DNA from: an uncultured Acidobacteriota bacterium
GTDB lineage: Bacteria; Acidobacteriota; Thermoanaerobaculia; UBA5066; Gp7-AA6
Assembly (NCBI GenBank): GCA_963764715.1
Contig: CAVXTP010000001.1
Coordinates: 11,504 to 75,503, forward strand
Direction of reading: 5' to 3'
DNA length: 64,000 nucleotides
This document shows positions 7,862 through 63,165 of the stretch, piece after piece. Every line of letters begins with the position of its first letter. Position 1 is the first letter of the stretch. Below the pieces are notes generated by a model. That model was given only the letters and a program-made list of their open reading frames with translations, did no database searches and was not told where the DNA came from. The position numbers and the translations under genes were made by a program.

Positions 7862-7865
7862 CTCC

Positions 7866-7903
7866 CTGCCTCCTGCCTCCTGCCTCCTGCCTCCTGCCTC
7901 CTG
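7866..7903. repeat. heptamer tandem repeat (CCTGCCT/GCCTCCT) x5
   Basis: Directly visible in the sequence. Lies in a convergent intergenic region. Confidence 0.85.
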
Positions 7904-7907
7904 AGGC

Positions 7908-11404: not shown

Positions 11405-11420
11405 GCCGGGCCCTCCGATT

Positions 11421-11628
11421 CGCGTCGAGGCACGACACGTCGCGGTCTGCGGCGTGCGAGGGCGGGGACGAGCCCCGCCCCTACGACCGGAGCGCGGCAC
11501 TCGCAGCGCCGGCTGCATCGTCGGCCCCACGGTCGTCGGGGCGCCCATGTCGCCGCCCTCTGCGTCGCGTCGAGGCACGACACGTCGCGGTCTGCGGCGT
11601 GAGGGGGCGGGGACGAGCCCCGCCCCTA
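11421..11628. repeat. two direct copies of a ~63 nt GC-rich REP-like unit containing the palindrome GGGGCGGGGACGAGCCCCGCCCC
   Basis: Near-identical 63-mers at 11421-11483 and 11565-11628. Related palindromes occur at about 20915-20945 and 45901-45957. Confidence 0.75.
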
Positions 11629-11651
11629 CTTTGTTCGACGGCGAGAGGACT

Positions 11652-12215: not shown

Positions 12216-12216
12216 C

Positions 12217-13637: not shown

Positions 13638-14213
13638 GTGTCCCTCCCCCACCTGCTCCTCGGGTTGCTCCACGCCGAGCCGCGCACGGGCTACGATCTC
13701 GCGCGCGCGGTCCGCGACGAGGTCGACCCGGCGTGGAGCGCGGGCTACTCCCAGATCTACCCCGCCCTGGCGGGGCTGCGCCGCCGCGGGTGGGTCCTCC
13801 TCCGGACGCTGGGCCCCCGCCGCGGCCCCCCCCGCCTCCTCTACCGGGCGACCGCCGCCGGCCGCCGGGAGCTCCAGCGGTGGCTCGCGGAAGCTCCCCC
13901 GCCTCCCCGCCGCAACGACGCCATCCTCGCCCGGGTCGCGCTGCTCGACGCCCTCCCTCCCGCCGCCCGCGCCGGCGTCCTCTCGCGGCTCGCCGCGGTT
14001 CTCGCGGCGGAGGCCGACCGGCTCGAGGCGCTCGGCGCCGGCGAGGGGTCGCGCGGCTTCGCCCGGCGGGCCGCCGCGGCCGAGCGCCGGGGACTCGCGC
14101 TCTTCCTCGATCGCGGGGCCGCTCCCGCTCCCGCCGTCCGGCGCTCGGCGCTCTCCCGCCCCGGCTCGCCGCAAAGTCCTTCCGGCGCCCGCCGTCGGAA
14201 GTATCATCGGTAG
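13638..14213 (+). CDS. PadR-family transcriptional regulator
   Basis: N-terminal winged-helix PadR signature (LLLGLL...PRTGYDL...YPAL..LRRRGW). Confidence 0.6.
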   Translation: MSLPHLLLGLLHAEPRTGYDLARAVRDEVDPAWSAGYSQIYPALAGLRRRGWVLLRTLGPRRGPPRLLYRATAAGRRELQRWLAEAPPPPRRNDAILARVALLDALPPAARAGVLSRLAAVLAAEADRLEALGAGEGSRGFARRAAAAERRGLALFLDRGAAPAPAVRRSALSRPGSPQSPSGARRRKYHR

Positions 14214-24000: not shown

Positions 24001-24090
<90 letters not shown>

Positions 24091-24150
24091 GGGGCGGGGA
24101 ATCCTACAACACCAGGCGACAGTCGCATGCGAGTAAACGCCGCGCGCCGC

Positions 24151-24232
24151 GCGGCGTTGCCTACTGCCGGGGGTCTGCCTCTGGTGGTCGGCTCCAAGCG
24201 TGCTCCTTAAGCCACTCGGACACCTCTCCGGG
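24151..24232 (-). repeat. mosaic repeat: duplicated 5' half of tRNA-Ser (acceptor through anticodon loop) fused to core CCGACCACCAGAGGCAGACCCCCGGCAGTAGG
   Basis: 24195-24232 repeats the tRNA 5' 38 nt. The adjacent core also occurs twice downstream of tRNA-Ser(CGA) at 53.7-54.0 kb. Confidence 0.7.
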
Positions 24233-25027: not shown

Positions 25028-25336
25028 CTACGCGCCGGAGGCCATCCGCCGCAGCGACTCGAACGAATAGATCCCGTCGTTGTGGCCGTCGGCCCAGTCG
25101 ATCTGCAGGGCGTACGAGCCGACCCACCGGTGGGCCGCCGCCTGGATCGACAGGGGCGTGAGCGGCCGGTCCGGCCCGCGGTAGATCTTGCCGAAGAGGT
25201 CGGGCTCCCCCTTGCACATGGCGCACGGGCAGGCGCGGCGGAGCTTCTCGAGCGACAGGTAGTCCTCGCGCCCGTCGTCCCAGACGATGACGAGCTCCTG
25301 GCCTAGGACCTGGACCTGCTTCGGGACCGAGATCAC
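25028..25336 (-). CDS. DUF971-family protein (gamma-butyrobetaine hydroxylase-like N-terminal domain)
   Basis: CPCAMC motif. ATGA overlap with the stop of the first kinase. Confidence 0.55.
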   Translation of the reverse strand: MISVPKQVQVLGQELVIVWDDGREDYLSLEKLRRACPCAMCKGEPDLFGKIYRGPDRPLTPLSIQAAAHRWVGSYALQIDWADGHNDGIYSFESLRRMASGA

Positions 25337-27939: not shown

Positions 27940-27966
27940 GGAGAGCGGGGGGATTCTACCGGAGGC

Positions 27967-33128: not shown

Positions 33129-33154
33129 TAAGGCGGCAGGATTCTAACCGCGAA

Positions 33155-38292: not shown

Positions 38293-40871
38293 TTCAGGTC
38301 CCTCACGCGGTACAGGGTCGAAAGAATGCGATTGAACCCCGCCGTCATGATCCGCCCGTCGGGGATGACGCGGGCCGGGCCGAACGCCGTCACGCCGGCG
38401 CTGTCGGGACCGACGAGGTCCCGGACGTGCGTTCGGTGGCCGGAGACGATGTCGATCAAGTCGACGCGGCAGGGAATGCCCACAACCGAGACGTAGAGGC
38501 CCTTTCCGTCCGCCGACCAGCCCGCGGGATAGTCGCCAACCTGCGAGGCGGGCAGATCCACGGGCGGTCCGCCGCCGACCGGATAGAGATGGACCTTCTG
38601 GTCGGGGCCGGTCGCCGTGACGAAGCGACCGTCGGGGGACACAAACAGGCGGCTCGGGTTCAGACCTTCCGCGCTGATCGGGGTCGGCTTCCCTCCCGCA
38701 ACGGGCTGGGCATACAGCCGCGCTCCATGGCCCGGCGCCGCGGCTTCGAAGAAGAATTTCGACCCGTCCGGAAGGAACGCGCCGTACGTGGGCCTCCCGA
38801 GCCCGTCCGGCGGGAACTCGCGGGGCTGCCCCGCCTTGACCGGAACGAGCACGAAGTGGGACGGCTCGGTGTAGGTCCGCGTCAGGGCCCAGGCGGCGTC
38901 CGGCGAGAGCGCCAGCCCCACCCCGTCGCCGAGTCGCACGGCGGGGGATCCATCCGTTTGCCGCAGGTACACCGACCCGTTGGCGCCTCCGCCCTCGCCC
39001 GATTCGTCGAACAGAAGGAGCTTCCCGTCGCTGGACAAAGCGCGATCGCCCGACCAGTCGAACCAGCCCAGATCGCGGCCCGCCGACTGATCCGGCAGGA
39101 ATGCCAGGACTCCGGAGCGATAGTCGTCCTCCGTGACGAGAGCGTTCGTGCCGGCCAGATCGAGCAGGGCCGGTGTTCCTTGCATCGTCCGAAGCAGGCG
39201 CAGCTTGCCCGAAAGCGTAACCGCCCAGATCTCACGCTCGATGCCCTGGCTTGCGGCCGTAAACCAGATCTCGCGTCCTCCCGGCGCCCAGACGAGGCCC
39301 TGGACGGTGGACCATCCCCCGGCGAGGTCGAGCTTCTTCCCCGAACGGTCCACGACGGCGATCGTGCCGTCGTCCCCGAATCCCGGGTGATCGATGAAGC
39401 CGATCTGCGATCCGTCCGGCGAGAAGCGCGGGCCCTGGATCCAGCCGGCCGTTTCGTAGAGCACCTTGCCGATCGGGAATTCGAGGCGCTCCTTTCCCGA
39501 CGTTCGCTGGACCACCGCGAGATCCGTCCCTCCCGGCGCCCAATCGGCATACGTCACGTCCTGCAGGATCTCCTTCGGCGCGCCCCCCGAGAGCGGCGCC
39601 CTCGCGAGCGTTCCGGTGTAGGCGAAGCCGGCCGGAGACGGTTTCGAGTCGAGTTGAATCGCAACCTCGCCGCCGGAGGAGATTCCGAGCAGGTTCGCCG
39701 CCGGGAGATTCAGCGCGGAGGATTCCGGATTTCCCGGCCTCAGGGAATAGATGCGAGGAGCGGCGCCTTCCCAGGCGGCACCGTAATAGACGGTCTGGCC
39801 GTCGGGCCCGAACCGGGCCGCGAGGATCGTCCCTCGCTGAAACGTCAGGCGCTGGAAGGTGGGCTGAGCTGCCGGAGCCGCCCGACGGCCGACGAACAGG
39901 CCGACCGCCGCGCCGAGAAGGATTCCGGCCGCGACGAGCGGGATCGCCCACGACCTCCGGCGCACCGGCTCGGCGACGGCCATCCCTCCGGAGGCCGACG
40001 TCGTGACCTCCGAAATGTGCTCGCGCACGCTCTTCAAGTCCCTCGCGAGGTCGCGCGTCGACGCATAGCGCTCGTCGGCGTCCTTGGCGAGGCAGCGTTC
40101 CACGATCCATCGGAACGGGGCGGGCGCGCGCGGGTTGACCTGCGCGACCGGCTCCGGTTCGTCCCGGATGATCGCCGTCAGCGTCTCCGCGCCCGTGTTC
40201 TTCTGAAACGCGCGCTTCGAGGTCGCCATCTCGTACAGGATCGAGCCCAGCGCAAACTGGTCGGACCGGAAGTCGACCGGGCGGCCGCTCGCCTGCTCCG
40301 GGGACATGTACCCCACCGTTCCCATCACCGTGCCGGGCTGTGTCTCCTGGGGGATCGCGGTCGGGGCCCCGGACTCCTTGTCGCTCGGCGCGACGAAGAG
40401 CTTCGCGAGACCGAAGTCGAGGATCTTGACGAAGCCGTCCTTCGTGACCATCACGTTTTCGGGTTTCAGGTCGCGGTGGACGATCCCTGCGCCGTGCGCC
40501 TTGGCGAGGCCTTCCGCGATCTGGACGGCGACGTCGAGCAGCTTCTTGCCCGCGAGGGGCCCGGAGGCGAGCAGCTCGCGCAGGCTCGCGCCTTCGACCA
40601 GCTCCATCGCGAGGTAGGGGGACCCGTCCGAGGATCCGATCTCGTGGATCGTGATGATGTTGGGATGGTTGAGGGCGGACGCAGCTCGCGCCTCCTGCTC
40701 GAAGCGCTTGAGGCGGTCCGGGTCCTGCGAGAACGAGGCCGGCAGGACCTTGATGGCCAGCTCGCGCGAGAGGCGGGGATCCTTCGCGCGATAAACCTCC
40801 CCCATGCCTCCCGCCCCGAGAGGCGCAAGGATCTCGTAGGGTCCGAGCTTTGTTCCGGCGGAGAGGGTCAA
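38289..40871 (-). CDS. receptor-type Ser/Thr protein kinase with TolB-like beta-propeller (paralog 6)
   Basis: Same architecture as paralog 1. Kinase domain most similar to paralog 1. Confidence 0.8.
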   Translation of the reverse strand: MTLSAGTKLGPYEILAPLGAGGMGEVYRAKDPRLSRELAIKVLPASFSQDPDRLKRFEQEARAASALNHPNIITIHEIGSSDGSPYLAMELVEGASLRELLASGPLAGKKLLDVAVQIAEGLAKAHGAGIVHRDLKPENVMVTKDGFVKILDFGLAKLFVAPSDKESGAPTAIPQETQPGTVMGTVGYMSPEQASGRPVDFRSDQFALGSILYEMATSKRAFQKNTGAETLTAIIRDEPEPVAQVNPRAPAPFRWIVERCLAKDADERYASTRDLARDLKSVREHISEVTTSASGGMAVAEPVRRRSWAIPLVAAGILLGAAVGLFVGRRAAPAAQPTFQRLTFQRGTILAARFGPDGQTVYYGAAWEGAAPRIYSLRPGNPESSALNLPAANLLGISSGGEVAIQLDSKPSPAGFAYTGTLARAPLSGGAPKEILQDVTYADWAPGGTDLAVVQRTSGKERLEFPIGKVLYETAGWIQGPRFSPDGSQIGFIDHPGFGDDGTIAVVDRSGKKLDLAGGWSTVQGLVWAPGGREIWFTAASQGIEREIWAVTLSGKLRLLRTMQGTPALLDLAGTNALVTEDDYRSGVLAFLPDQSAGRDLGWFDWSGDRALSSDGKLLLFDESGEGGGANGSVYLRQTDGSPAVRLGDGVGLALSPDAAWALTRTYTEPSHFVLVPVKAGQPREFPPDGLGRPTYGAFLPDGSKFFFEAAAPGHGARLYAQPVAGGKPTPISAEGLNPSRLFVSPDGRFVTATGPDQKVHLYPVGGGPPVDLPASQVGDYPAGWSADGKGLYVSVVGIPCRVDLIDIVSGHRTHVRDLVGPDSAGVTAFGPARVIPDGRIMTAGFNRILSTLYRVRDLK

Positions 40872-40903
40872 GTCGGGGCGATTCTACGACGGCCGCGCTT
40901 CGT

Positions 40904-43594
40904 CTAACCGGCGGCAGCAATGAGCTTCTGAAACCGAGGATTCCCGCGCAGCGGATCGAAGTTCGGGTCGATCTTCAGCCAGCCGGGCGAAAGGATGTAG
41001 GGGATCTTTAGAAGGGGCTCGAGCTGGTCGAGCGCTTTGTCGGGCTCCCCCGCCAGGATGTAGATCCGCGCGAGCTGGTGCTGCAGGAATGGGCCGGTGA
41101 ACCCGTCCTTCGCGATCGGGAGCATCGCCACGCCCTTCTGCGCCTCGGCGATCCCCTGCGCGGTGTCGCCCGCGTAGGCGAGCGCCAGACCGAGGCCCAC
41201 GCGGCGCTGCGCGTCCTCGGGGGAGGACTGCAGCTGCTCCTCGATCGCCTTCCTTGCCGCGTCGGCGTGCGCGCGCGTCTTCGCCGCGTCGCCGCGGAGG
41301 GCCCAGGCCTGCGCGAGGCAGAGGCCCCAGGTGGCGCGATCGCCGTCGAAGGCGCTCGGCGCCAGGCTCACGAGAAGGTCTCGCTGCTTCTCGTCGAGGA
41401 GCCACACGACGTCCCAGTAGGCCGCCACGTAGGCGACGAGCGCCGCGGGTTCGACCTCCCGGGGCGCCGCGGCGAGCACGCTCCTCGCTCCCGCCAGATC
41501 GGCCTCTCCGAGAAACGTCATGGCCTTGCCTTCGATCAGGCCGAGGTGCGTCGGCGCGATGACGAGCCCCCGGTCGAAGGCCTCCCGCGCCGGGGAAAAG
41601 CGACGAAGCCAGTAGTACGCGTCGCCCAGCCGGCGCAGCACGCTGACCGAGCGGGGGTCGAGCCGTTCCGCCTTCTGCAGCGTCTCGACGGCGGCGTCCC
41701 ACCGGCCGAGCGCCACATCGGCCACGGCGATCGCCGAGAGCAGGTCGGCGTTTCCGGGCGAAAGGGCCCGCGCGCGGGCGTACTGCTCGAGGGCCCGGTC
41801 GGAGTCCTTCGTCACGAGCCGTTCGTACTGGCCCATGGCGACGTAACCGTCCGGGCGATTCGGCGCGAGGCGGACGGCCCGCTCGGCGGCCTGCCGCGCG
41901 GCCTCGGCGAGCGCGGGCGTCGGCCCGCTGTTGCCGTAGAGCATGGAGTTCGCCCTCGAAACCCTCGCCCAGGCCTGCGCAAACCCGGCATCGAGCGCCA
42001 CGGCCCGCTCGTAGAAGGAGAGGGCCTGGCGCAGGCTCGGCGGGTCCTGGACACCCATGCTCCGGGAGACCTGCTCGCCCCGGAGAAACTCGTCGTACGC
42101 GGCGAGGTCCTTCGTGGGCCTTTCGTTCAACTGCTGCTGCTCGCGCGGCTGGAGCACGACGCCGAGCTCCTGCGCCACGCGCGAGGCGATGTCCGACTGC
42201 ACCTGGAACACGTTGGTCAGGGCGGCGTCGAAGGGCTGCTGCCACTTGGACGCCGGCGCCTCCGAGCCCGCCACTTCGACGAGCTCCGTCGAGACGTGCA
42301 CCCGACTCTCCGCCGCGGCCTTGTCCCAGCGCACCGTCGCGGTCAGGAGGTATCGCACGCCGAGCTCCCGGGCGATCTCCTGAGGCGTCTTCGTCGTCTT
42401 GCGGTAGGGAGTCGAGCTGCCGCGCGCGATCACCTGCAGCCCCGGCAGGAGCGTCAGCTTGCCGCGGACCTCGTCGGCGATCCCGTCGGCGAAGTACTCG
42501 TCCTCGGGCGCGCCGAGATTTTCGAACGGCAGCACGGCGAGTCGGGTCGGGGCGGCCGGAGCCGCCGCGGTGGTCTTCGCCGGCCGTTGCGGCCTCAGCA
42601 GGAGGAAGAGGCCGACGGCGGCGGCGAGCCCGATCCCGCCCCAGAGGGCGAGCCGGCCGACCGGTCTCCGGCGCCTCCGGGGCGGAGGAGGCTCGGGCGC
42701 AACGGGCCGGGGGCCGCTTCCCGCCACCGCGGCCGCCGCGGAGAGCGAGGCCTCCGAGAGCGCGAAGACGACGTCCTTGGCCGACTGAAAACGGTGGTTC
42801 GGGTTTTTCTCCAGACAGTGGCGCACGACGTGGTCGAGAGCCGGCGCGATCCCGCGACCGGACTCGGCCGGATCGGGCGGTTCGTCGCGCAGGATCGCCG
42901 TCATGGTCTCGATCGCAGAGGTCCGCCGGAAGGCCCGCTGGCCCGACAGCATCTCGTAGAGGATCGCTCCGAACGAAAAGATGTCCGAGCGGTGATCGGT
43001 TTTCGCGGCGCGCACCTGCTCCGGTGACATGTAGCCGGCCGTGCCGAGCACGACGCCGGGTTCGGTCAGGCCCGGGTCGGTGAGCGCCGGCGACGCCGAG
43101 CCCGCGGGGTCGCCGCCGACGCGCTTGGCGAGCCCGAAGTCGAGGATCTTCAAATGCCCTGCGTTGGTCACGAAAATGTTCTCGGGCTTCAGGTCCCGGT
43201 GGACGACCCCCTTCTCGTGCGCCGCGGAGAGCCCACGCGCGATCTGGAGCGCGTAGTCGACGGCCGCCGCCTCGGTGAGAGGGCCCGCCTCGAGGCGTCC
43301 GCGCAGCGTGTCGCCCTCGAGCAGCTCGGTGACGGCGTACGCGACGCCCTGCGCGCTTCCGAACTCGTGGATCGCAAGGATGTTCGGATGCGACAGGGCC
43401 GCGACGGCCTTGGCCTCGCGCTCGAACCGCGCATACGCGTCCTGGTCCAGCGCGAGGTTCCCGGGCAGCACCTTGATCGCCACCTCGCGATCGAGCGTCG
43501 TGTCGCGGGCGCGGTAGACCTCCCCCATGCCTCCGGCTCCGAGGGGCGCAAGCACCTCGTAGTGGCCGAGGAGGCTGCCCTCGGAGAGTGGCAT
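40904..43594 (-). CDS. Ser/Thr protein kinase with TM segment, TolB-N-like region and C-terminal TPR repeats
   Basis: Kinase motifs ([15 protein letters not shown]). Start taken at MPLSEGSLLGHYEV. The C-terminal half is TPR-rich rather than a propeller. Confidence 0.75.
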   Translation of the reverse strand: MPLSEGSLLGHYEVLAPLGAGGMGEVYRARDTTLDREVAIKVLPGNLALDQDAYARFEREAKAVAALSHPNILAIHEFGSAQGVAYAVTELLEGDTLRGRLEAGPLTEAAAVDYALQIARGLSAAHEKGVVHRDLKPENIFVTNAGHLKILDFGLAKRVGGDPAGSASPALTDPGLTEPGVVLGTAGYMSPEQVRAAKTDHRSDIFSFGAILYEMLSGQRAFRRTSAIETMTAILRDEPPDPAESGRGIAPALDHVVRHCLEKNPNHRFQSAKDVVFALSEASLSAAAAVAGSGPRPVAPEPPPPRRRRRPVGRLALWGGIGLAAAVGLFLLLRPQRPAKTTAAAPAAPTRLAVLPFENLGAPEDEYFADGIADEVRGKLTLLPGLQVIARGSSTPYRKTTKTPQEIARELGVRYLLTATVRWDKAAAESRVHVSTELVEVAGSEAPASKWQQPFDAALTNVFQVQSDIASRVAQELGVVLQPREQQQLNERPTKDLAAYDEFLRGEQVSRSMGVQDPPSLRQALSFYERAVALDAGFAQAWARVSRANSMLYGNSGPTPALAEAARQAAERAVRLAPNRPDGYVAMGQYERLVTKDSDRALEQYARARALSPGNADLLSAIAVADVALGRWDAAVETLQKAERLDPRSVSVLRRLGDAYYWLRRFSPAREAFDRGLVIAPTHLGLIEGKAMTFLGEADLAGARSVLAAAPREVEPAALVAYVAAYWDVVWLLDEKQRDLLVSLAPSAFDGDRATWGLCLAQAWALRGDAAKTRAHADAARKAIEEQLQSSPEDAQRRVGLGLALAYAGDTAQGIAEAQKGVAMLPIAKDGFTGPFLQHQLARIYILAGEPDKALDQLEPLLKIPYILSPGWLKIDPNFDPLRGNPRFQKLIAAAG

Positions 43595-53654: not shown

Positions 53655-53744
53655 GGAGAGGTGCTGGAGTGGTTGATCAGGCCGGTCTCGAAAACCGGTA
53701 GGCCCGAAAGGGTCTCGTGGGTTCAAATCCCACCCTCTCCGCCA
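53655..53744 (+). tRNA. tRNA-Ser (anticodon CGA)
   Basis: Manual cloverleaf: acceptor GGAGAGG/CCTCTCC, anticodon loop CTCGAAA, long variable arm, CCA encoded. Confidence 0.85.
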
Positions 53745-54084
53745 CTACTACTGCCTCGCGACAGTCGTGGGTTCACCCGACCACCAGCGGCAGACCCCCG
53801 GCAGTAGGGAGCCGTCCACCAGAGATCGACCCCCGATCTTAGGCAACGCTGGCCGAAGGCCAGCGGTAACCCACGCTGCGCGAAGCGCAGCGGTAAATCC
53901 CACCCTCTCCGCCACTAATGTTGCCTCGAGACAGTCGTGGGTTCGCCCGACCACCAGAGGCAGACCCCCGGCAGCAGGGAGCCGTCCACCAGAGATCGAC
54001 CCCCGATCTTAGGCAACGCTGGCCGAAGGCCAGCGGTAACCCACGCTGCGCGAAGCGCAGCGGTAAATCCCACCCTCTCCGCCA
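53745..54084 (+). repeat. two tandem ~170 nt units, each a tRNA-Ser 3' fragment (T-arm to CCA) whose T-loop is interrupted by a ~135 nt insert beginning CCGACCACCAG(C/A)GGCAGACCCCCGGCAG
   Basis: Units at 53745-53913 and 53914-54084. Each ends with AAATCCCACCCTCTCCGCCA, identical to the 3' end of tRNA-Ser. Confidence 0.75.
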
Positions 54085-54120
54085 TTATTGCTCCTCGAGA
54101 GAGTCGTGGGGTCGGCGCCC

Positions 54121-55449: not shown

Positions 55450-56775
55450 ATGAACTGGAAGAAGACCTTCGCGATCGTCCGGCGGGAGTACATCGAGCGC
55501 GTCCGCACGAAGTCGTTCTGGGTGGCGACGCTCCTCATCCCGTTCCTGTTCCTCGCCTACATCGCCTTCCAGATCTCCTCGTCCCGCAAGACCGGCGGCG
55601 AGCGGACGATCGTGGTCGTCGACCAGACCGGCACGCTGTACGCCCCGCTCGAGAAGGAGCTCGCGGCGACCGAGTCCGAGCAGAAGGCGAAGGGATCCGG
55701 GAACAAGGGGCCGCACTGGAACCTGAAGCTCGCTCCGGCCGGCGGAGATCTCGCGGCGACGAAGGAGGCCCTTCGCAAGCAGGTCCTCGCCAAGGACATC
55801 AGCGGCTACCTCGTCCTCGAGCCGCAGAAGATCAAGAACGACGAGGTCGAGTACTACTCGACGACGGTGTCGGACTTCATCGCGCTGAACCAGCTCGAAC
55901 GCTCCCTCAACCGCGTGCGCATGCGGGAGAAGATGCACGACCGCGGACTGCCCACGGACCTCGCCGGCGAGCTCGAGAAGCGGATCGACTTCAAGGCCTT
56001 CAAGGTCACCGAGAAGGGAACCGCCGAGGAAAAGGGCGCCGGCATCATCGCCGCGATCATCTTCATGGTGCTCATGTACACGACCTTCTTCGTGTACGGC
56101 GGCCAGGTCATGCGCGGGGTCATCGAGGAAAAGTCGAGCCGGATCGTCGAGATCATCATCGCCTCCGTGCGGCCGACCGAGCTGATGCTGGGCAAGATCA
56201 TCGGCATCGGCCTCGTCGGCCTGACGCAGTACCTGGTGTGGTCGCTCCTCGCGATGAACCTGTCGCTCCCGGGGATCGCCACCGTTCTGTCGTCGAGCGA
56301 CATGGGCGTGCCCCGGATTCCGGTCGCGATGCTCGGCTACTTCATCCTGTTCTTCGTGCTCGGCTACTTCGTCTACGCCAGCGTCTACACGACGATCGCG
56401 GCGCCGTTCAACAGCGAGCAGGAAGCCACCCAGTTCATGATGATCCCGATCATCCTCATCCTCGCCGGCTTCATGGTTTACCCGGCCGTGATGAACAACC
56501 CCAACGGCAACGTGGCGGTCTTCTTCTCGCTCTTCCCGTTCACGTCCTCGCTCGTTATGTTCCTCCGGACGGCCGTCTCCGAGCCCCCGGCCTGGCAGGT
56601 ACTTCTCTCGATCGCCCTCCTGATCGCCACGACCGTCGGCCTCGCCTGGTTCGCGGGCCGCGTCTACCGCGTCGGCATCCTCATGTACGGCAAGAAGCCC
56701 ACGATCCCCGAGATCCTGCGGTGGGTCAGCTACAAGCCTGGCAAGGCTCCCCAGCCGGCGGCGAAGGCGCCGTAG
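55450..56775 (+). CDS. ABC-2 family transporter permease
   Basis: N-terminal TM, large extracytoplasmic loop, then 5 TM segments. Confidence 0.7.
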   Translation: MNWKKTFAIVRREYIERVRTKSFWVATLLIPFLFLAYIAFQISSSRKTGGERTIVVVDQTGTLYAPLEKELAATESEQKAKGSGNKGPHWNLKLAPAGGDLAATKEALRKQVLAKDISGYLVLEPQKIKNDEVEYYSTTVSDFIALNQLERSLNRVRMREKMHDRGLPTDLAGELEKRIDFKAFKVTEKGTAEEKGAGIIAAIIFMVLMYTTFFVYGGQVMRGVIEEKSSRIVEIIIASVRPTELMLGKIIGIGLVGLTQYLVWSLLAMNLSLPGIATVLSSSDMGVPRIPVAMLGYFILFFVLGYFVYASVYTTIAAPFNSEQEATQFMMIPIILILAGFMVYPAVMNNPNGNVAVFFSLFPFTSSLVMFLRTAVSEPPAWQVLLSIALLIATTVGLAWFAGRVYRVGILMYGKKPTIPEILRWVSYKPGKAPQPAAKAP

Positions 56776-56838
56776 GGCCTGTCCCGGCGGGCGGTTGCCC
56801 CGATCGCGACGGCTGTGCTACCTTTCGCGCCCCCGTTT

Positions 56839-56913
56839 GGCCCATTCGTCTAACGGTTAGGACGCGGCCCTCTCAAGGCCGAAATACGGGTTCGATTCCC
56901 GTATGGGCTACCA
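56839..56913 (+). tRNA. tRNA-Glu (anticodon CTC)
   Basis: Manual cloverleaf: acceptor GGCCCAT/ATGGGCT, D-loop TTCGTCTAACGG, anticodon loop CTCTCAA, T-arm ACGGGTTCGATTCCCGT, CCA encoded. Confidence 0.8.
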
Positions 56914-57083
56914 GCTCCCCGCCGCTTCGTTATTAGCCCGCCGCGTCCTCCGGACGCGACCCTCTCAAGGCGGCTTCCTTTGAGCGCGCCCTTCCGGGCG
57001 CGACACGGGTTCGATTAGCGCCGGGCGGACCCGGCGCTTGTCGCGGCGCTTTCGCGCCGCTCGGTGCCCCGTATGGGCTACCA
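56914..57083 (+). repeat. degenerate tRNA-Glu-derived repeat unit, copy 1; ends with an exact duplicate of the tRNA-Glu 3' end CCCGTATGGGCTACCA
   Basis: Contains GGACGCGACCCTCTCAAGGCGG (tRNA-Glu anticodon-arm-like), then a GC hairpin insert, then ACGGGTTCGATT (the T-arm), then the 3'-end duplicate at 57068-57083. Confidence 0.75.
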
Positions 57084-57182
57084 GATCTCCCCGCGCTGTC
57101 AGCTCCCGCCGACGGGGGTCAACGCTGCTTTCCTGCAGCGTCACGTCGGCACAGGATTGCAGCGTTGACCCTGTTCACCTGT

Positions 57183-57716
57183 TTACCGGTCCTGCTCCTG
57201 CGGGACGCGAACGATGCGCGAGACGTCGTAACCCTGCTCGCCGACCAGCGCGAGGAGGCGCGCGTAGTCGGCCTCTGGAATGCGCGGAGTGCGCGCCATG
57301 ATCCAGACGTGATCGCGCTTGTTGCGGCTGATGATGGTGGTGGAGTAGTCCTCGTCCAGGTACGTGATCAGGTACTCCGCCTCGATCGGCCACACGAACT
57401 GCATGCCCCAGGTGGCGTTGGTGCGCTTGTCGCGCACGTACCCCCTGGGCGTGTAGCGCTTCGGTTTGCCGTCGAAGCCGCCCTTGCGGAAGGTGAAGGT
57501 CGTCTCCACGACGCCGTCCGGGCGCAGGCGGTACGACTCGATGGCGGCGTAGGCGCCCTTCTCGAGCGAGGTCGGGATGCTGGCGATGACGTACCAGTCC
57601 CCCATGAACCTCGCGAGATCCACGTGGTCCACGGTCTTCAGCGGCCGTAGCGCGGAGGTCGAGCATCCCGTCGCGGCGACGAGGAGGCCCGCCAGGAGGA
57701 AGCGGGCGCCGGCCAC
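57183..57716 (-). CDS. blc: bacterial lipocalin (Blc-like) lipoprotein
   Basis: Lipobox LVAATGC. Lipocalin SCR1 motif FMGDWYVIA. Confidence 0.7.
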   Translation of the reverse strand: MAGARFLLAGLLVAATGCSTSALRPLKTVDHVDLARFMGDWYVIASIPTSLEKGAYAAIESYRLRPDGVVETTFTFRKGGFDGKPKRYTPRGYVRDKRTNATWGMQFVWPIEAEYLITYLDEDYSTTIISRNKRDHVWIMARTPRIPEADYARLLALVGEQGYDVSRIVRVPQEQDR

Positions 57717-57720
57717 GATT

Positions 57721-58383
57721 TCAGAGCAGTTCGTAGAGGAGGCGGTGGCCGCCTTCGAGCTGCGACTCCAGGCCGAGCCAGCCTCCGCCGGGCGCGTACC
57801 AGAGGTCGATCGCCATGCCCGGCGCCTTCAGCCGGTATCGTTCCGCCCGGGTCACCGCGCCGCGCACCGGGAACGTCTCCTCGCCCAGCGGTTGCACCTC
57901 GACGGCCACGAGTTCGCCCGTCTGGCTGTTCAGCAGCGACGAGCGCTCGAGGAACTCCGGGTTCCAGTAGGCGAAAGAGCTGACGCAGGACGGCCCTGCT
58001 CGCCGCGCGCCCCGGCTTTCGACGAGGAATTGATTCCCGGCCGAGGCCCCGCGCACTTCGTACGTTCTGCCGTTGTCGTCGGTGCGCGACTGGATGCTGG
58101 CCAGACAGCGATCGTCCCAGACCTCCACGGCCTCGTGCCGGTACTCGTAGGCCGTGACGAAGAGGAGCTTGACCTTGAGCGCGGCCTCGCTCCGAAGCAC
58201 TTTCCGCGAGCCCTCGGTCCGGAGAACGAAGTCGTGACGCCCCACCTCGCGCCCGTCGAGGAGAACGCGGAAGCGCCATTGCTGCGTCGGCTCCGCGTCC
58301 GCCCGGGCGGCCCGCGCCCCGTTCGGAGTGATCGCGCCGAGCACGGCCAGCGCGAGTGCGGCCAGAACGTTCCGCGACTTCAT
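57721..58383 (-). CDS. hypothetical secreted protein
   Basis: Signal peptide MKSRNVLAALALAVLGA. Start chosen inside a longer ORF. Confidence 0.4.
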   Translation of the reverse strand: MKSRNVLAALALAVLGAITPNGARAARADAEPTQQWRFRVLLDGREVGRHDFVLRTEGSRKVLRSEAALKVKLLFVTAYEYRHEAVEVWDDRCLASIQSRTDDNGRTYEVRGASAGNQFLVESRGARRAGPSCVSSFAYWNPEFLERSSLLNSQTGELVAVEVQPLGEETFPVRGAVTRAERYRLKAPGMAIDLWYAPGGGWLGLESQLEGGHRLLYELL

Positions 58384-58708
58384 GCGAGCCCCCTCCTGAC
58401 TGCCAGGAGCCGGCATTCTCCTCGACCTGGGGCTCGATGCGTGCAGGTTGTCCAGGTCGGAAAGGCCGGCGCCGCCGAGCCGTGGGGCTACCCGATCTCC
58501 CGCCCTTCCCGCCGCCCGGAGCGCCGGCGCCCGGGGCCGAGAAAGCTTTCGCCCACCAGGACCGTGACGCCGTCCGAGCGGAACGAGAAGGTGTGCCCCG
58601 CCGGGTTGTCGTCTCCGGCCGGAGGACGAATGCGGACCGGGGTGCCACCTACGCCGGCCGCCGAAGGCGTTCGATTCCCGCGAAGAACGTCGAAAGGTTC
58701 CAGGTCGC

Positions 58709-58846
58709 GCCCGTATGGGCGACCAACTCCAGCCGGCTTCGCGAGGGACGGCTGCGTCCCGCCGCAGCCCTCTCAAGGCGGCTCACTCTCAGGCGTCGCT
58801 CCGCGACGCGCGCGCCCCTTCTCGCGCGACACGGGGTCGTTTGGCG
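58709..58846 (+). repeat. tRNA-Glu-derived repeat unit, copy 2 (most diverged)
   Basis: GCGCCCGTATGGGCGACCA ... CAGCCCTCTCAAGGCGGCT ... GCGCGACACGGGGTCGTTTGGCG. An upstream 3'-end-like 25-mer lies at 58479-58503. Confidence 0.65.
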
Positions 58847-58877
58847 TTGCCGCCGAGCATCGGCGTCGTGAACGCGG

Positions 58878-60236
58878 TCAGAACTCGCGTGGCAGGCCCA
58901 TTTTTCTCAGGCGATCGTCAAAGCGCGGATCATCGCGCAGGCCATCCCAATCCGGTGCGACCGCCAGGTGAACCAGTGCCGGGTCGCGCTGTGCGATGGC
59001 CTGATCGAGGCAGTCGAACGCTTCATCGAGCCGGCCTGCTCCCCCGTAGATTCTGGCGCGGAAGAACGGCATCTTGAGCAACACGTCGAAGTCCAGCTGC
59101 GGGTTCGAGATTTGATCCACCCAGAATTGGCTCAGTCCGGAGAGGCCGGCCGTCGCGTACGCGTGCTGCGCTTCCGCGGTGACCTGCTTCACTACCGCCA
59201 GCCACTCTTCGGGTAAGCCGAACTCGATGGCATTGCGGACGGCCAGGGCCGCGAATCGATCGAGGTCGACGATCTTCAAATAGACGTAGCCAATGAATTG
59301 GCACGCCTGCGCATGCTTCGGGTTGACGTCAAGCGCTCGCCGGGCCCAGCCAAGCGCGTCGTCGTACTTCCGCTGGTGCCAATACGAGATGGCGATCTGC
59401 ACCAGAACGCCGGGCGATCGCGGATCGCGCGCGAGCGCCTGTTGCTTGCATCGCAGCCCGTCGTCGAGCCGCCCGAGCGCTTCCTGGAGCGACCCATACT
59501 GCAGGAGCGCCTCGGTGTGATCCGGATTGATTTCGAGCGCGCGTTGCAGGCTGCGCTCCGCCGCCGTCCAGTCCCACTCGCTGAGAAAAAGGACGGTGCC
59601 AAGGGCAACCTGCGCGTCCGCCGAGGCGCTGTCCATCGCCAGCGCGCGTAAGGCAGACGCCTTCGCCTCTGCAAACGCCTCCTGGTGCGGCACCCCGTGA
59701 GACGCTGCCAGCACGCACTGTGCGCGCGCCAGGCCGGCGTGCGCCGGCGCGTAGGTCGGATCGATCTCGATCGCGGAACGAAAGGCTTCCACGGCGGCCG
59801 GCAGTTCGAAAAACGAGTCGGACAACAGGTGAGACCGGCCGCGGCCGACAAGCTCGTAAAGTTCGACGGGTCGCGCCACGGCGCTCGATACGAATGGCCT
59901 CTCGTCCTCCGAATCAACCCTGACTGCAGCGATGAAGCGGTACCCGGACCCCGCCACCGTTTCGATATAGATCGGCCGGTGGGCGTCCTCGTGAAGCGCC
60001 TTGCGCAGCGCCGACATGTGAACCGTGAGACCGCCTTCTTCGACGAATGACTCGGGCCAGATGCGCTTCAGCAATTCGTCCTTCGTGACCAGGCGGCCCC
60101 GCTGTCGTACCAACGCAACCAGCACATCGTAGGCCTTCGGTGACACGCGGACGACTTCCGCGCCGCGCAGGAGCCGCCGCTCTCGCACGTCGAGCGTGAA
60201 TTCGTCGAAATGAAATACCTCACTGCTGGTGGCCAT
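58878..60236 (-). CDS. CadC/OmpR-type winged-helix transcriptional regulator with TPR repeats
   Basis: N-terminal DNA-binding winged helix (FDEFTLDVRERRLLRG...YRF), followed by TPR-like helices. Confidence 0.6.
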   Translation of the reverse strand: MATSSEVFHFDEFTLDVRERRLLRGAEVVRVSPKAYDVLVALVRQRGRLVTKDELLKRIWPESFVEEGGLTVHMSALRKALHEDAHRPIYIETVAGSGYRFIAAVRVDSEDERPFVSSAVARPVELYELVGRGRSHLLSDSFFELPAAVEAFRSAIEIDPTYAPAHAGLARAQCVLAASHGVPHQEAFAEAKASALRALAMDSASADAQVALGTVLFLSEWDWTAAERSLQRALEINPDHTEALLQYGSLQEALGRLDDGLRCKQQALARDPRSPGVLVQIAISYWHQRKYDDALGWARRALDVNPKHAQACQFIGYVYLKIVDLDRFAALAVRNAIEFGLPEEWLAVVKQVTAEAQHAYATAGLSGLSQFWVDQISNPQLDFDVLLKMPFFRARIYGGAGRLDEAFDCLDQAIAQRDPALVHLAVAPDWDGLRDDPRFDDRLRKMGLPREF

Positions 60237-60321
60237 CAGATTTCGGCGAATCTTAGCAAGTCCTTAAGGACGCGTCACGGCCGGGACAGCTGTCATGAAC
60301 GCGCTTTCAAAGGAGAAGAGA

Positions 60322-60855
60322 ATGATCACCCGATCGTTGGTCGCCTTCATTCTGAGCTGCGGATTCACGGCACTCTCACTCGCGCAAGCTCCACCAGAGC
60401 CCCCGAAGCCGGGCCCCGAGCAGAAGAAGTTGGAGTACTTCCTTGGCACTTGGAGGGTGGAAGGCGAGGTTAAACCGAACGACTACATGCCGGCCGGTAA
60501 GAGTGTCATCACCGCGACATATGCATTGGGTCCGGGGGGATTCTCTGTCGAGTCCCGAGGTGAAGGGGAAAATTACCCGACGACCCACGGAATCACGGCC
60601 TACGACAGCCAGGCGAAGCTCTACACGACATTTTATGCGAGCAGTGCCGGACTCGTGGGTGGCGGCACAGCAACGGTTGACGGAAATACCTGGACGTGGA
60701 TGCTTGAAGACAAGTGGCTTGGCCAAGCATTCAGAGGAAGAACGACAGTCACCGTCAAATCGGCGTCTCAGTACACGGCCAAGTATGAATATCTCGACCC
60801 GAACGGCAGTTATGTAACGCTCGTAGAAAGCACCGCCACCAAAGTCGCGCCTTAG
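60322..60855 (+). CDS. DUF1579-like secreted protein
   Basis: AAGGAG SD. Signal peptide. The local GC content is clearly lower than the surroundings. Confidence 0.5.
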   Translation: MITRSLVAFILSCGFTALSLAQAPPEPPKPGPEQKKLEYFLGTWRVEGEVKPNDYMPAGKSVITATYALGPGGFSVESRGEGENYPTTHGITAYDSQAKLYTTFYASSAGLVGGGTATVDGNTWTWMLEDKWLGQAFRGRTTVTVKSASQYTAKYEYLDPNGSYVTLVESTATKVAP

Positions 60856-61107
60856 AGACGCAGACACCAGCCGTTCGAAGTGGAGCAGAACCTGGTCCTC
60901 GCCCTAGAAGCGAAGCGGGCTCGCCTCCCAGATCCGGACTTGGCGTCTTATCCGAACCAGCTTCTCGATGCCTGCAGCGAGGTCTGGCAGGGGTTCACGG
61001 CGATCCTGGAACACGGCTTTCCAGGTCAACCTTCAGTCTTCCCAGCTGCGTGAGCCAGTCTTGGATCTGGTTTCAGCTGGGGCCAGATCAACCCCACTCC
61101 AAGTCTC

Positions 61108-61225
61108 ACGCCGCGTCCTGCGGATGCAGCCCTCTCAAGATGGCTGCCTTTGAGCGCGCCCTTTCGGGCGCGACACGGGTGAAATTGGCGCCGGGGGGTA
61201 CCCGGCGCCTTGTGTCTGCTCTTCG
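61108..61225 (+). repeat. tRNA-Glu-derived repeat unit, copy 3
   Basis: GCAGCCCTCTCAAGATGGCTGCCTTTGAGCGCGCCCTTTCGGGCGCGACACGGGTGAAATTGGCGCCGGGG. Confidence 0.7.
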
Positions 61226-61257
61226 CGCGCTCGCGCGCTCTCCCCGGAGGGGGACCC

Positions 61258-61722
61258 CTACTTCACCGTGAACGTCTTCGAAGGCCCGGGTTTCCCGTCC
61301 ACCGTGGTTTCGACCTTGTAGCTGCCCTTCGGCCAGCCCGACGGCTTCTGGATCGAGAACTCCGTCGTCGCCGGACCCGTGGGCGCGATGGTCCTCGAGT
61401 CTTCCTTGACCACCTGTCCATCGCCGAAGGTCCACTTCACCGCGATCACCGAAGCGGCCGCCGAGCCGTCCGTCGATACGGCGGCAAAGATCGTGTCTTT
61501 CGGCGAAAACGTGTCGGTCGGCGCCTGGACCTTCTTGTCGGGTCCGAGGGACTTCCCGAGCGAGAGATCCGTGACGGTGACGGCGGGGGCCGGGACGGCC
61601 GTCGGCACGACCGGGACGGGGGTGGGCATCGGGGCCGGGGCCTCTGCCTTCTTGCATGCGCTCAGAGCGACCGCCGAAGCCAGGACTGCCGCCACGAGGG
61701 CGGCGTGAGTACGTGTCGTCAT
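61258..61722 (-). CDS. hypothetical lipoprotein
   Basis: Lipobox LSAC. Pro-rich linker. Confidence 0.45.
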   Translation of the reverse strand: MTTRTHAALVAAVLASAVALSACKKAEAPAPMPTPVPVVPTAVPAPAVTVTDLSLGKSLGPDKKVQAPTDTFSPKDTIFAAVSTDGSAAASVIAVKWTFGDGQVVKEDSRTIAPTGPATTEFSIQKPSGWPKGSYKVETTVDGKPGPSKTFTVK

Positions 61723-61756
61723 CTGCTCTCCTTCTGCCTGGGAACGGCGCTGCCGC

Positions 61757-62023
61757 TCATTCGGGAATCCGGAGCTTCCAGCCCGGCTGGATGAGGTCCG
61801 GATTTTTCACGATGTCCCTGTTCGCTTCGAAAATCCGCTTCCACGAATTCGCGTTGCCGTAGAACTTCTTGGAAATCTTCGAGAGACTGTCTCCGCTCTG
61901 GACGACGTACGTTCGGGAGGTCTCGGCGGCCACTCCCGCCTTGTTCCCCGAGGGCGATGGCGCCGTCGACGAGCTTCCGGATTCGACGTCCGAGAAGTCC
62001 GGCTTGTTGGGGTCATCCGTCAT
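61757..62023 (-). CDS. LysM-domain protein
   Basis: C-terminal LysM motif (YVVQSGDSLSKISKKFYG...W..I...N). Confidence 0.6.
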   Translation of the reverse strand: MTDDPNKPDFSDVESGSSSTAPSPSGNKAGVAAETSRTYVVQSGDSLSKISKKFYGNANSWKRIFEANRDIVKNPDLIQPGWKLRIPE

Positions 62024-62069
62024 TCCATCCTCCTTCTCGACCCGTTTGCCGGGTCGGCAGTGTTCGTTC

Positions 62070-62318
62070 TCACGCCGGCTTGGCCGTGAACTTCCGGTAG
62101 ATCCAGGTGACGGCGATCGCGCCGATGACCGCCACGATGATCGTATAAATCAGGCCGCCTTCCGCCTTGAAGCCGAACAGGCTCATCAGGAAGCCGCCCG
62201 CCAGAGCTCCCACGAGGCCGAGGATGATGTCCATGAGAACTCCACCCCCGCCTCCCATGATCTTGCCGGTGAGCCATCCCGCAATCAGGCCCACGATCAG
62301 CCACCAGATGATGCCCAT
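62070..62318 (-). CDS. GlsB/YeaQ/YmgE-family transglycosylase-associated membrane protein
   Basis: 82 aa with Gly-rich TM helices (GIIWWLIVGLIAGWL). Confidence 0.7.
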   Translation of the reverse strand: MGIIWWLIVGLIAGWLTGKIMGGGGGVLMDIILGLVGALAGGFLMSLFGFKAEGGLIYTIIVAVIGAIAVTWIYRKFTAKPA

Positions 62319-62321
62319 GGC

Positions 62322-62879
62322 TCATCTCCTCGCCTGAGAAATCTTGGACATGAGGAGCGCCAGTGCGCCGGCGCCGATCGCCTTGACGAGCGTCGGGTGT
62401 TGCGCGTAAAAGCCCGCGGCCTTGTCCATGATTGACGGATCTCTTGTCGCCGCCTGCCGGGCGATCGTCTGGACCGCCTCGGGGCTCACATCCTGAGCCT
62501 GCTGCGGCGTCACGCTCTGGCCGGCGACCGCCCCGGCAAGGCCTCCGAGTCCCAGGGAACCCAGGATCTGGGAGCCGGCGGGACCGAGCGATGCGAGCAG
62601 CTGGTTGAGAAGTCCCGCTTTCTGATCGGGGTTGGACTGGCCGAAGAGCCCGGACACCATCTGCTCGAACGGCGGTGTTTGATCGGACTTGAAGGCGTGA
62701 CCGAGGCCGGCCGCGAGGCTCCCCTGCGGAACGGCGGAGGCCACTTGATCGTAGGCCGCGTGCACGTCGGAGTCCGATGCACTGCCACGGGTGAACTGAT
62801 CGACGATGCTGCCGAGGTTATCCATAAGACCCATGGCGTCCTCCTTACGATTCGATGATTCGTCGACATCGAGAAACAC
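62322..62879 (-). CDS. hypothetical protein (DUF937-like, Gly/Ala-rich)
   Basis: ORF adjacent to the upstream gene. Start uncertain; an alternative is MGLMDNL. Confidence 0.35.
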   Translation of the reverse strand: MFLDVDESSNRKEDAMGLMDNLGSIVDQFTRGSASDSDVHAAYDQVASAVPQGSLAAGLGHAFKSDQTPPFEQMVSGLFGQSNPDQKAGLLNQLLASLGPAGSQILGSLGLGGLAGAVAGQSVTPQQAQDVSPEAVQTIARQAATRDPSIMDKAAGFYAQHPTLVKAIGAGALALLMSKISQARR

Positions 62880-63037
62880 GCCGGCGAAACAGCGACAGTG
62901 GCGTTCGCCGTCCGCGACCTCGAGGAACCGAGTCTATAACCGGTTCCTAACCCCACCTCGAACGTGCCGGGGGGCAGGACCGGGCCGCCGTCCGCCGCAA
63001 GATCCTTTAAGAATCTTTCGACGTGGTTCCATCTCGG

Positions 63038-63165
63038 GCCCGTATGAGCTACTTGCTCTCTGCCGCTTCGTTAGTTACCCGCCGCGTCCTGCGGTCACGA
63101 CCCTCTCAAGGCGAATCCCTTTGAGCGCGCCCTTTCGGGCTCGATACGGGTTCGATTCCGGCATG
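63038..63165 (+). repeat. tRNA-Glu-derived repeat unit, copy 4 (begins with the 3'-end-like CCCGTATGAGCTAC)
   Basis: CCCGTATGAGCTAC...CGCTTCGTTAGTTACCCGCCGCGTCCTGCGG..ACGACCCTCTCAAGGCGAATCCCTTTGAGCGCGCCCTTTCGGGCTCGATACGGGTTCGATTCCGG. Confidence 0.7.

Follow-up and report, generated by a model that had tools for sequence, protein, structure and literature searches.

Genomic islands that are linked to a tRNA gene and carry repeats of its 3′ end together with decayed elements are already known. Integrases classically target the T arm and the 3′ end of tRNA genes, and there are documented cases of serial integration in which partial tRNAs and decayed elements stay behind (10.1101/2020.12.28.424599; 10.1101/2022.07.05.498093; PMC4119200); the footprint that integration usually leaves is a partial copy of the tRNA (10.1101/2022.07.05.498093). 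Here we describe such a locus in a 64 kb stretch of DNA (64,000 nucleotides, 69% G+C) from an uncultured Acidobacteriota bacterium, which is used throughout as the reference sequence and is called the window. The element in question is a 1.4 kb block with two genes, one for a bacterial lipocalin and one for a DUF6134 protein; it adjoins a tRNA-Glu(CTC) gene and is flanked by direct repeats of the 3′ portion of that tRNA. The comparisons with related loci document a recent horizontal exchange of this two-gene, recombinase-free cassette, with a junction that lies on the tRNA-derived repeat.

Several described systems resemble this locus in part. The fGI1-type additive islands of Alteromonas share with it a tRNA gene as the target, cassettes that vary between strains and direct repeats of the tRNA 3′ end at the cassette ends (PMC4119200). 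The cassettes here, however, are very small (1–2.5 kb, two to four genes) and are separated by near-complete decayed tRNAs rather than by bare 3′ fragments, and none of nine loci showed an integrase within the island or close to it. In the tycheposons of Prochlorococcus, serial integration at a tRNA pushes older elements inward and leaves scattered partial tRNAs and degenerate elements, as is seen here, and the cargo genes are niche-adaptive in both cases (10.1101/2020.12.28.424599). Tycheposons are defined by a tyrosine recombinase of their own and a replication module; neither of these, nor fragments of them, was found at the present locus. The cis-mobilizable elements (CIMEs) of the Streptococcus ICESt1/CIME work are reportedly integrase-less cargo between att sites, which a related element mobilises by accretion with its integrase. 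Our block may resemble them in that att-type repeats flank cargo without its own integrase, but here a helper element was not found, the repeats lie inside arrays of tRNA pseudogenes and mobility is read from comparative data only. Integron arrays likewise consist of small, mostly recombinase-free cassettes between structured repeats, with a content that varies among close relatives. At this locus, in contrast, there is no intI or attI, the repeats derive from tRNA and are not attC sites, and the cassettes stand in both orientations, hold several genes each and have promoter regions of their own; an integron cassette was rejected as the class of the block for lack of an integrase, for its tRNA-derived repeats and for the multi-gene cassettes on both strands. 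At tyrT of Escherichia coli, 178 bp tandem units lie distal to the tRNA gene, each with the last 19 nucleotides (nt) of the tRNA. Tandem units that follow a tRNA and end in a copy of its 3′ end are found here too, after tRNA-Glu (the psi units described below) and as 170 nt units after tRNA-Ser(CGA); tyrT is not known to have intercalated gene cassettes or to undergo horizontal exchange. Four features are less usual here: tiny recombinase-free cassettes, near-complete decayed tRNAs as spacers, clean evidence for recent exchange and analogous tRNA-derived tandem units at two tRNA-Ser genes of the window.

Two terms are needed in what follows. Decayed copies of tRNA-Glu are called psi units, and the repeated piece itself, consisting of the T-stem 3′ strand, the acceptor 3′ strand and the CCA of the tRNA plus about 10–20 nt of downstream sequence, is called O. 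The block and its surroundings are made up as follows.

56839–56913, plus strand: intact tRNA-Glu(CTC) gene that anchors the island (ARAGORN; Rfam tRNA model, 64.3 bits, E 6.5e-13)
56914–57016, plus strand: spacer and psi unit 2, a decayed tRNA-Glu copy called by neither ARAGORN nor Rfam
57017–57066, plus strand: c-type insertion, rich in hairpins and about 50 nt long, that separates the T loop of psi unit 2 from its T-stem 3′ strand
57067–57092, plus strand: left repeat, with the T-stem 3′ strand, acceptor 3′ strand and CCA of tRNA-Glu plus GATCTCCCC
57093–57182, no strand: cassette leader, which as far as about 57128 is homologous to what follows the same repeat in relative L003
57183–57716, minus strand: bacterial lipocalin, a Blc-like lipoprotein (Pfam Lipocalin_2, PF08212, E 1.3e-39, residues 32–173)
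57721–58383, minus strand: DUF6134 protein that carries a signal peptide and is encoded upstream of the lipocalin in the two-gene operon (Pfam PF19630, E 1.7e-48)
58384–58478, no strand: upstream (promoter) region of the operon, homologous to relatives L080 and L081 up to about 58465
58479–58503, plus strand: right repeat, a degenerate tRNA-Glu 3′ part plus GATCTCCCGC, present in relative L203 and not in L013

The left repeat reads CCCCGTATGGGCTACCAGATCTCCCC and the right repeat GCCGTGGGGCTACCCGATCTCCCGC. Both stand where the original prediction for this DNA had placed them; its count of 21 matches in 23 positions becomes, on alignment of 57069–57091 with 58480–58501, 20 matches, two mismatches and one gap in 23 columns. 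The ungapped core, GGGCTACCNGATCTCCC, agrees at 16 of 17 positions between the two copies. When GGGCTACCAGATCTCCC is sought with up to one mismatch, the 64 kb contain two sites, which are the two repeats, against an expectation of 0.01 from 100 shuffles, none of which held two or more matches. The first 16 nt of the left repeat are identical to the 3′ end of the tRNA-Glu(CTC) gene at 56898–56913, and both repeats derive from that 3′ end, as had been proposed. The accompanying statement that only a lipocalin gene and a gene for a secreted hypothetical protein lie between them is borne out by the two Pfam assignments. Just past the CCA end the repeats have GATCTCCC in common, while the flank of the real tRNA is GCTCCCCG and lacks it; each O copy comes with a conserved leader of 10–45 nt, which explains this shared stretch. 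The pair is not isolated, since further copies of the tRNA-Glu 3′ end or tRNA-derived units are found at 56898–57016, 58654–58846, 61075–61233 and 63039–63165.

Related loci (n = 79; numbered with the prefix L) were fetched with the adjacent ABC-2 permease and show that the window comes from a Thermoanaerobaculia-like lineage of the Acidobacteriota. Among these, a tblastn search with both proteins matches only L013; the block is also present in L132 and L203, and the gene pair in L080 and L081. An empty site is seen in L003, where the tRNA, a psi unit and O are followed after 45 nt by a regulator gene and where 21 kb contain neither a lipocalin nor a DUF6134 gene. The comparison with strains lacking blc at this locus, put forward as a check in the original prediction, shows that the bracketed segment is variably present. 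The same prediction was to be given up if the repeats belonged to a larger family of units and the segment showed no variable presence; the family is real but the presence varies, so that one half of this objection applies and the other does not.

Compared base by base, 57068–58468 differs from L013, the closest relative of the window, at 21 of 1401 nt (98.5% identity). The lipocalin gene is 98.5% identical at the nucleotide level (98.3% in amino acids, 97.2% at third codon positions) and the DUF6134 gene 98.9% (98.6% at third codon positions). Outside the block the two genomes are about 87–93% identical: 90.9% in the ABC ATPase gene (third codon positions 80.9%), 93.1% in the regulator gene (88.1%) and 89.5% in the DUF1579 gene (85.0%). 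Directly to the left of the block, the psi unit and spacer reach only 59%, including a 46 nt indel. In this comparison the switch in identity on the left falls on 57068, the first base of the left repeat, and to the right of about 58471 similarity is wholly lost. L132, a metagenome contig from a third lineage, has the block at 98.1–98.5% identity behind a psi unit at 56–76%, and similarity resumes at CCCGTATGGGC. In three lineages with strongly different psi units upstream, the tract of high identity has its start on the first base of the left repeat. Near-identity at third codon positions and in intergenic DNA cannot be produced by selection, and the common ancestor of the block must therefore be much younger than the genomes that carry it.

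The block is not the only part of the island to behave in this way. A cassette with an ArsR-like gene and an AHSA1 gene is 98% identical between L013 and L001 (96–97.5% at third codon positions), as against 92% in the core genes (81% at third codon positions), and it too starts at an O copy (position 15360 in L013, 12831 in L001). For the lipocalin cassette, and separately for the cassette with the ArsR-like and AHSA1 genes, these identities show an exchange between lineages that took place much later than the lineages diverged. The loci taken together show cassettes that are gained, lost, reordered and inverted between relatives and exchanged as units delimited by O copies. The block combines variable presence, with an empty site, and evidence of transfer that is separate from its flanks.

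The repeats of the window belong to the larger family of psi units. In psi unit 2 the D arm is collapsed to the hairpin GCGTCC-TCC-GGACGC, the remnant of the anticodon arm is CCCTCTCAAGG, an additional GC hairpin (GCGCGCCC-TTCC-GGGCGCGA) occupies the position of a long variable arm and the 5′ half of the T arm is ACGGGTTCGATT. The c-type insertion that follows is missing from the orthologous unit in L013, L003 and L132, in which the psi unit joins the repeat with an insertion of only 6 nt. Such insertions of about 46–50 nt, made up of two GC hairpins (AGCGCCGGGCGGACCCGGCGCT, TGTC, GCGGCGCTTTCGCGCCGC) placed exactly between the T loop and the T-stem 3′ strand, recur at 61187–61233 of the window, at 15314–15359 of L013 and in L124, L125, L115, L142, L148 and others. 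Psi units stand beside the tRNA-Glu(CTC) gene in 15 related genome loci. A scan of metagenomes with a psi-specific 18-mer gave 93 matching stretches, and 80 loci (L110–L189) were scanned; about 30 of the 80 contain full psi units, in every case with tRNA-Glu on the same contig or with the units at the contig end. Because the units are always tied to tRNA-Glu or to a contig end, they are a property of this locus and not a dispersed repeat. Counting only distinct sequences, there are 62 copies of full length and 65 versions of the variable-arm insert; every one of them ends in the same hairpin beside the T arm. The loops of the psi hairpins differ, many of them being C(UUCG)G-like, and compensatory changes in the stems are few (GCGCGCC/GGCGCGA versus GCGCGGCG/CGCCGCGA); with stems that are nearly invariant, a covariation test has little power.

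In most copies the 5′ acceptor strand is not complementary to the 3′ strand and the D loop is collapsed to 3 nt. A functional tRNA or tRNA-like family for the psi units is not detected by ARAGORN or Rfam, which find only the real tRNA, and a search of 56000–59500 against Rfam at a permissive E-value returns the real tRNA plus chance matches only (mir-7147, CyVA-1 and a Tymo tRNA-like model overlapping the tRNA). The mir-7147 match lies at the hairpin of the cassette leader and was dismissed as a chance match to a hairpin. On these searches the psi units belong to no known RNA family. More distant relatives (L008 at 12190–12640, L010 at 11400–12030, and also L005, L011 and L015) have psi units upstream of the real tRNA-Glu; these consist of a near-identical promoter region, a perfect tRNA 5′ half, a hairpin insert of 50–68 nt and a T arm, without a matching acceptor 3′ strand. 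The units also have a practical side: they break assemblies, many contigs ending in them, and can be mistaken for tRNA fragments.

The variable island lies between tRNA-Glu and a set of core genes (a PEP-mutase-family gene, an AhpC/redoxin gene, pyruvate kinase and ftsZ-ftsA), and in this Thermoanaerobaculia-like lineage its gene content, order and orientation differ among close relatives. Modules that recur are a Trans_reg_C + TPR regulator with or without a DUF1579 gene, the ArsR-like helix–turn–helix gene with AHSA1, and α/β-hydrolases; cytochrome P450s, a methyltransferase, an L,D-transpeptidase and a CLC channel are among the genes found in single genomes. The modules are bounded by O copies and psi units. 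To the right of the block the window continues as follows.

58504–58846, plus strand: scrambled remnant segment, with a 49 nt match to L003 (17939–17987) at 58550–58598
58847–61233, no strand: next cassette, with a Trans_reg_C + TPR regulator (58878–60236, minus strand) and a DUF1579 protein (60295–60855, plus strand)
61234–63165, no strand: further cassette with all genes on the minus strand, coding for a lipoprotein with a weak PKD-like match, a LysM protein, a Transgly_assoc protein and one unknown protein

The remnant segment opens with a leader-like stretch (58504–58530) that follows the right repeat and resembles the L003 flank, and it contains a T-arm fragment (58666–58681), an attR-type scar (58692–58725) and a spacer with psi unit 4 (58726–58846). 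The regulator cassette ends in a scar with a tRNA 3′ part at about 61005–61090, psi unit 5 (61091–61186) and a c-type hairpin (61187–61233), and the LysM-containing cassette in a scar with a tRNA 3′ part (62975–63054) and psi unit 6 (63055–63165). The regulator cassette is inverted in L002 and L023, the tRNA itself being inverted in L023, and it is 93% identical to that of L023 as against 81% in the core genes. The island genes have atypical codon usage, with scores per residue of 0.08–0.41 (0.53 in one gene of 82 residues) versus 0.61 in the flanking transporter genes. In L203 (a contig from SRR31279431) an inverted copy of window 58710–58812, comprising the tRNA 3′ part, the spacer and the 5′ part of the psi unit, is inserted at the equivalent of 58565, which shows that single units are also rearranged on their own. 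Long open frames that run through the repeats were considered as genes and rejected as low-complexity artefacts.

Many orphan O copies have a conserved non-tRNA sequence on their left, with a T-loop-like GGTTCCA 8 nt before CCCGTATGGGC. These scars are found in the window at 58692–58725, about 61005–61090 and 62975–63054, in L001 at 14130–14202, in L013 at 16438–16510 and elsewhere. On the minus strand the scar reads VAHTGxxWNQ[IL]xxFLRDLxxLRxAA followed by a stop, which is at the same place in nine of 17 distinct copies, and the third codon positions of this frame are the more variable ones (entropy 1.37, versus 1.08 and 1.06). The scar looks like an attP arm, perhaps one that overlaps the 3′ end of a gene. 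An intact gene with this peptide ending was not found in the loci, and a padded profile search of 5.8 billion proteins yielded six short spurious open reading frames over scars. The integrase gene of the Myxococcus phage Mx8 is said to overlap attP with its 3′ end; a similar overlap may exist here.

The right end of the block is less regular than the left. In L013 the block joins the 3′ flank of the regulator gene directly from about 58470; the join shows a short microhomology (GGCCG/CCGTG), and 392 nt of the window (58472–58863) are missing, a segment that holds the right repeat, the leader-like stretch, a gene remnant, another scar and psi unit 4. A 10 nt repeat, GCCGCCGAGC, at 58469–58478 and 58849–58858 flanks the 380 nt segment that is absent from L013. 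The short metagenome contig L203, on the other hand, shares the junction of the window, right repeat included, and is about 97% identical to it as far as 58565. The right repeat thus accompanies the block in two genomes (the window and L203) and is lost in a third. It may be either the original attR or the start of the next, remnant cassette. A candidate T-loop remnant of the right repeat at 58440–58466 was discarded, because its homologue in L080 and L081 is the native sequence upstream of the operon.

How the cassettes move has to be judged from these patterns. We favour, with about an even chance of being right, the reading that the lipocalin and DUF6134 genes form a cargo-only cassette, with attachment-type repeats and no recombinase found, that would be moved by site-specific recombination in trans within an additive island anchored on tRNA-Glu(CTC). 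The island is a string of 1–2.5 kb cassettes separated by psi units, each beginning at an O copy and usually ending in the conserved non-tRNA arm sequence before the next O copy. Recombination would be of the tyrosine-integrase type and take place at the T arm and 3′ part of the tRNA-like sites, with an enzyme acting in trans that would be encoded elsewhere in the genome or on a helper element; 57068–57092 would then be the core copy borne by the element (the attL side) and 58479–58503 a displaced older copy of the host (the attR side). This reading is favoured because the left junction falls on the same base for two cassettes, because the site is a classical integrase target and because arm-like sequences lie beside orphan cores.

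Several observations weigh against it. No integrase, resolvase or transposase domain was found with Pfam in the 36 proteins tested from the window, its island and eight other islands. The eight islands (20 proteins) are those of the genome relatives L001, L002, L003, L008, L009, L013 and L023 and of the metagenome locus L118. The window proteins comprise those of the island, those encoded next to each of the four tRNA genes and those of several open reading frames of middle size that lack annotation, so that not all window genes were scanned; the rest appear from their N-termini to be housekeeping genes or kinase paralogues. Neither of the two proteins of the block has a Pfam domain of a recombinase (tyrosine or serine type) that could serve as an integrase of its own, and no intact autonomous element or cognate integrase-bearing element is seen in about 60 loci with psi arrays. 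The L013 copy of the block lacks the right repeat, and the similarity to L203 runs past that repeat, so that the right end of the mobile unit is not fixed. On the left, similarity to the empty site of L003 persists for about 36 nt past the repeat, 57093–57128 matching the L003 sequence there at about 70%, which is not predicted by a simple attP arm. Finally, most of the comparisons rest on metagenome-assembled genomes and metagenome contigs, in which repeats can be misjoined, a risk that the long contigs among the relatives (0.5–2.9 Mb) lessen without abolishing it.

Viral contigs were searched as well. The 3′ half of tRNA-Glu and the scar pattern TGGTTCCAN8CCGTATGGGC gave no match in them. 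The anticodon-arm pattern GGACGCNNCCCTCTCAAGGCG gave 27 matches; those inspected are genuine tRNA-Glu genes without relation to the locus, which lie in phage tRNA arrays or are tandem tRNA genes, and none of them resembles a psi unit beyond the tRNA-like parts. Other element classes were also considered. An insertion sequence element or a miniature inverted-repeat transposable element was rejected, as the ends of the block are not joined by a terminal inverted repeat, the only long inverted pairs lie inside it or are at chance level and no transposase domain was found. A phage was rejected because the defining features are missing. The description of the block as a classical integrated element is not borne out either: the repeat pair is one of many in an array of cassettes, no recombinase was found with it and the right repeat is inconstant. 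The more cautious wording, a remnant or miniature element, survives in so far as a miniature cargo-only element in a tRNA-anchored island fits the data, but not in its single attL/attR pair.

The strongest competitor of site-specific recombination in trans is homologous recombination by the host after DNA uptake, which we take as a serious alternative, though a less likely one. The tRNA-derived units would serve as portable homology, the other side would be joined through a second repeat or by an illegitimate microhomology join, and the repeats would be old scars. Such a process needs no recombinase near the arrays, and none is found there; O and its extension of about 20 nt are present in every unit, so that crossovers confined to them would also yield tracts that start at O; the right junction of L013 resembles a microhomology join, with the 10 nt repeat around the missing segment; and tandem arrays of two or three psi copies are easily made by unequal crossing-over. 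On the left junction, however, the homology amounts to only about 17–40 nt, which is short for RecA-dependent exchange, the psi units themselves being 56–76% identical. The left junction moreover coincides to the base in two different cassettes, one of them compared in three lineages and the other in two, and the conserved arm-like non-tRNA sequences beside orphan O copies are not explained.

Two further explanations were considered. If the operon were an old, vertically inherited resident, the repeats would be unrelated scars and the pattern of presence would reflect differential loss in a region prone to deletion. The region does undergo deletions, the DUF6134–lipocalin pair is widespread and conserved (as in the CFA-synthase/desaturase cluster of L082), and L080 and L081 hold the pair, at 75–79% amino-acid identity, next to redoxin, pyruvate kinase and ftsZ-ftsA core genes and a psi fragment. 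Vertical residence cannot, however, yield 97–99% identity at third codon positions and in intergenic DNA beside core genes at 81%, nor the sharp switch at 57068, and L081 has the pair at another place in the island than the window and L013 do; we regard it as very unlikely. Of similarly low probability is a functional RNA role of the psi units and 3′-end copies, which would be conserved as tRNA-like processing signals, terminators or stabilising hairpins transcribed together with the tRNA or the cassettes and would stand at cassette borders only secondarily. The variable-arm hairpin is kept in all 65 distinct psi variants, the copies upstream of the tRNA in L008, L010, L011 and L015 retain a near-perfect promoter region and tRNA 5′ half, and psi unit 2 of L003 folds somewhat better than its shuffles (z −2.2). 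Yet the almost invariant stems leave covariation support weak, the loss of acceptor pairing and the collapsed D arm mean that the unit as a whole is not tRNA-like, Rfam and ARAGORN give no match, and what is conserved is identical to the real tRNA, a pattern that gene conversion would give; nor would a role as RNA explain the step in identity at the repeats.

The cargo carried by the cassette is an ordinary gene pair for the envelope or lipid stress that is conserved together in many bacteria. The N-terminus of the lipocalin, LLAGLLVAATGC, holds a lipobox-like motif of the lipoprotein type, and the protein has both features expected of Blc, the domain and a lipoprotein signal. The pair is found again in L080, L081 and L082. 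In L080 and L081 (75–79% protein identity) it has the same neighbourhood and another position, lying between the psi fragment and the redoxin gene in L081. L082 (a JGI 3300005829 contig, 648–8633) has a proteobacterial type of context, with the pair inside a conserved cluster of genes for a MerR/B12-binding regulator, CFA-synthase-like methyltransferases, DUF2878, DUF1295, a fatty-acid desaturase, an amine oxidase and DUF1365; this cluster suggests a role of the cargo in lipid or photo-oxidative stress. Proteins identical to the lipocalin and the DUF6134 protein are encoded on a Logan contig from ERR12037368, and exact-protein look-ups for the regulator and the DUF1579 protein found no record. 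On the far side of the operon the tract of high identity to L013 stops at about 58468–58471. The cassette leader contains a long, near-perfect hairpin at about 57104–57171, with a 13 bp outer stem and an inner stem (−47.5 kcal/mol, z −4.8). It lies 12 nt downstream of the stop codon of the lipocalin gene, has no U tract and differs between the window and L013 at only two positions (57151 and 57160); it probably serves the operon as a terminator-like or stabilising element.

Partial tandem copies are present at three of the four tRNA genes of the window. The tRNA-Ser(CGA) gene (53655–53744) is followed by two tandem units of about 170 nt (region 53655–54086) that are about 95% alike by eye. Each is built from a spacer and the 5′ half of the T arm (GTCGTGGGTTCA), together with an insert of about 120 nt that is rich in hairpins and the final 20 nt of the tRNA (53892–53914 and 54062–54084). 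Judged by BLAST coordinates, L013 has about 66 nt at this place and the window about 300 nt, so that the number of units appears to vary. At tRNA-Ser(GGA) (24001–24232, minus strand) the promoter-proximal region and the 5′ half of the gene up to the anticodon loop are duplicated about 140 nt upstream; the duplicate continues with CCGACCACCAGAGGCAGACCCCCGGCAGTAGG, a motif that also opens the insert of the tRNA-Ser(CGA) unit. Elsewhere in the window, 25333–43594 (minus strand) holds seven tandem paralogous genes for proteins of about 856–896 residues, which are Ser/Thr-kinase-like by N-terminal sequence only.

A wider version of the favoured reading would treat the decayed-tRNA arrays as a reusable, integron-like landing platform, in which a dedicated recombinase encoded elsewhere would insert, excise, invert and exchange recombinase-free cassettes of 1–2.5 kb at the T arm and 3′ part of tRNA-Glu-derived sites, with the same happening at other tRNA genes such as tRNA-Ser(CGA) and tRNA-Ser(GGA), whose analogous units share an insert motif. 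We think this unlikely; if it were true, the arrays would constitute a system for capturing cassettes that differs both from integrons and from self-encoded integrative elements. The type of locus, a tRNA gene with arrays of decayed copies and cassettes between them, could be mined for the recombinase responsible. If a trans-acting enzyme exists, the island would be a compact natural platform for cassette exchange, and if there is none it would be a clean example of repeats that act as portable homology in an additive genomic island. The locus shows how accessory genes for the envelope and for stress are shuffled in the Acidobacteriota, a poorly studied phylum of soil bacteria.

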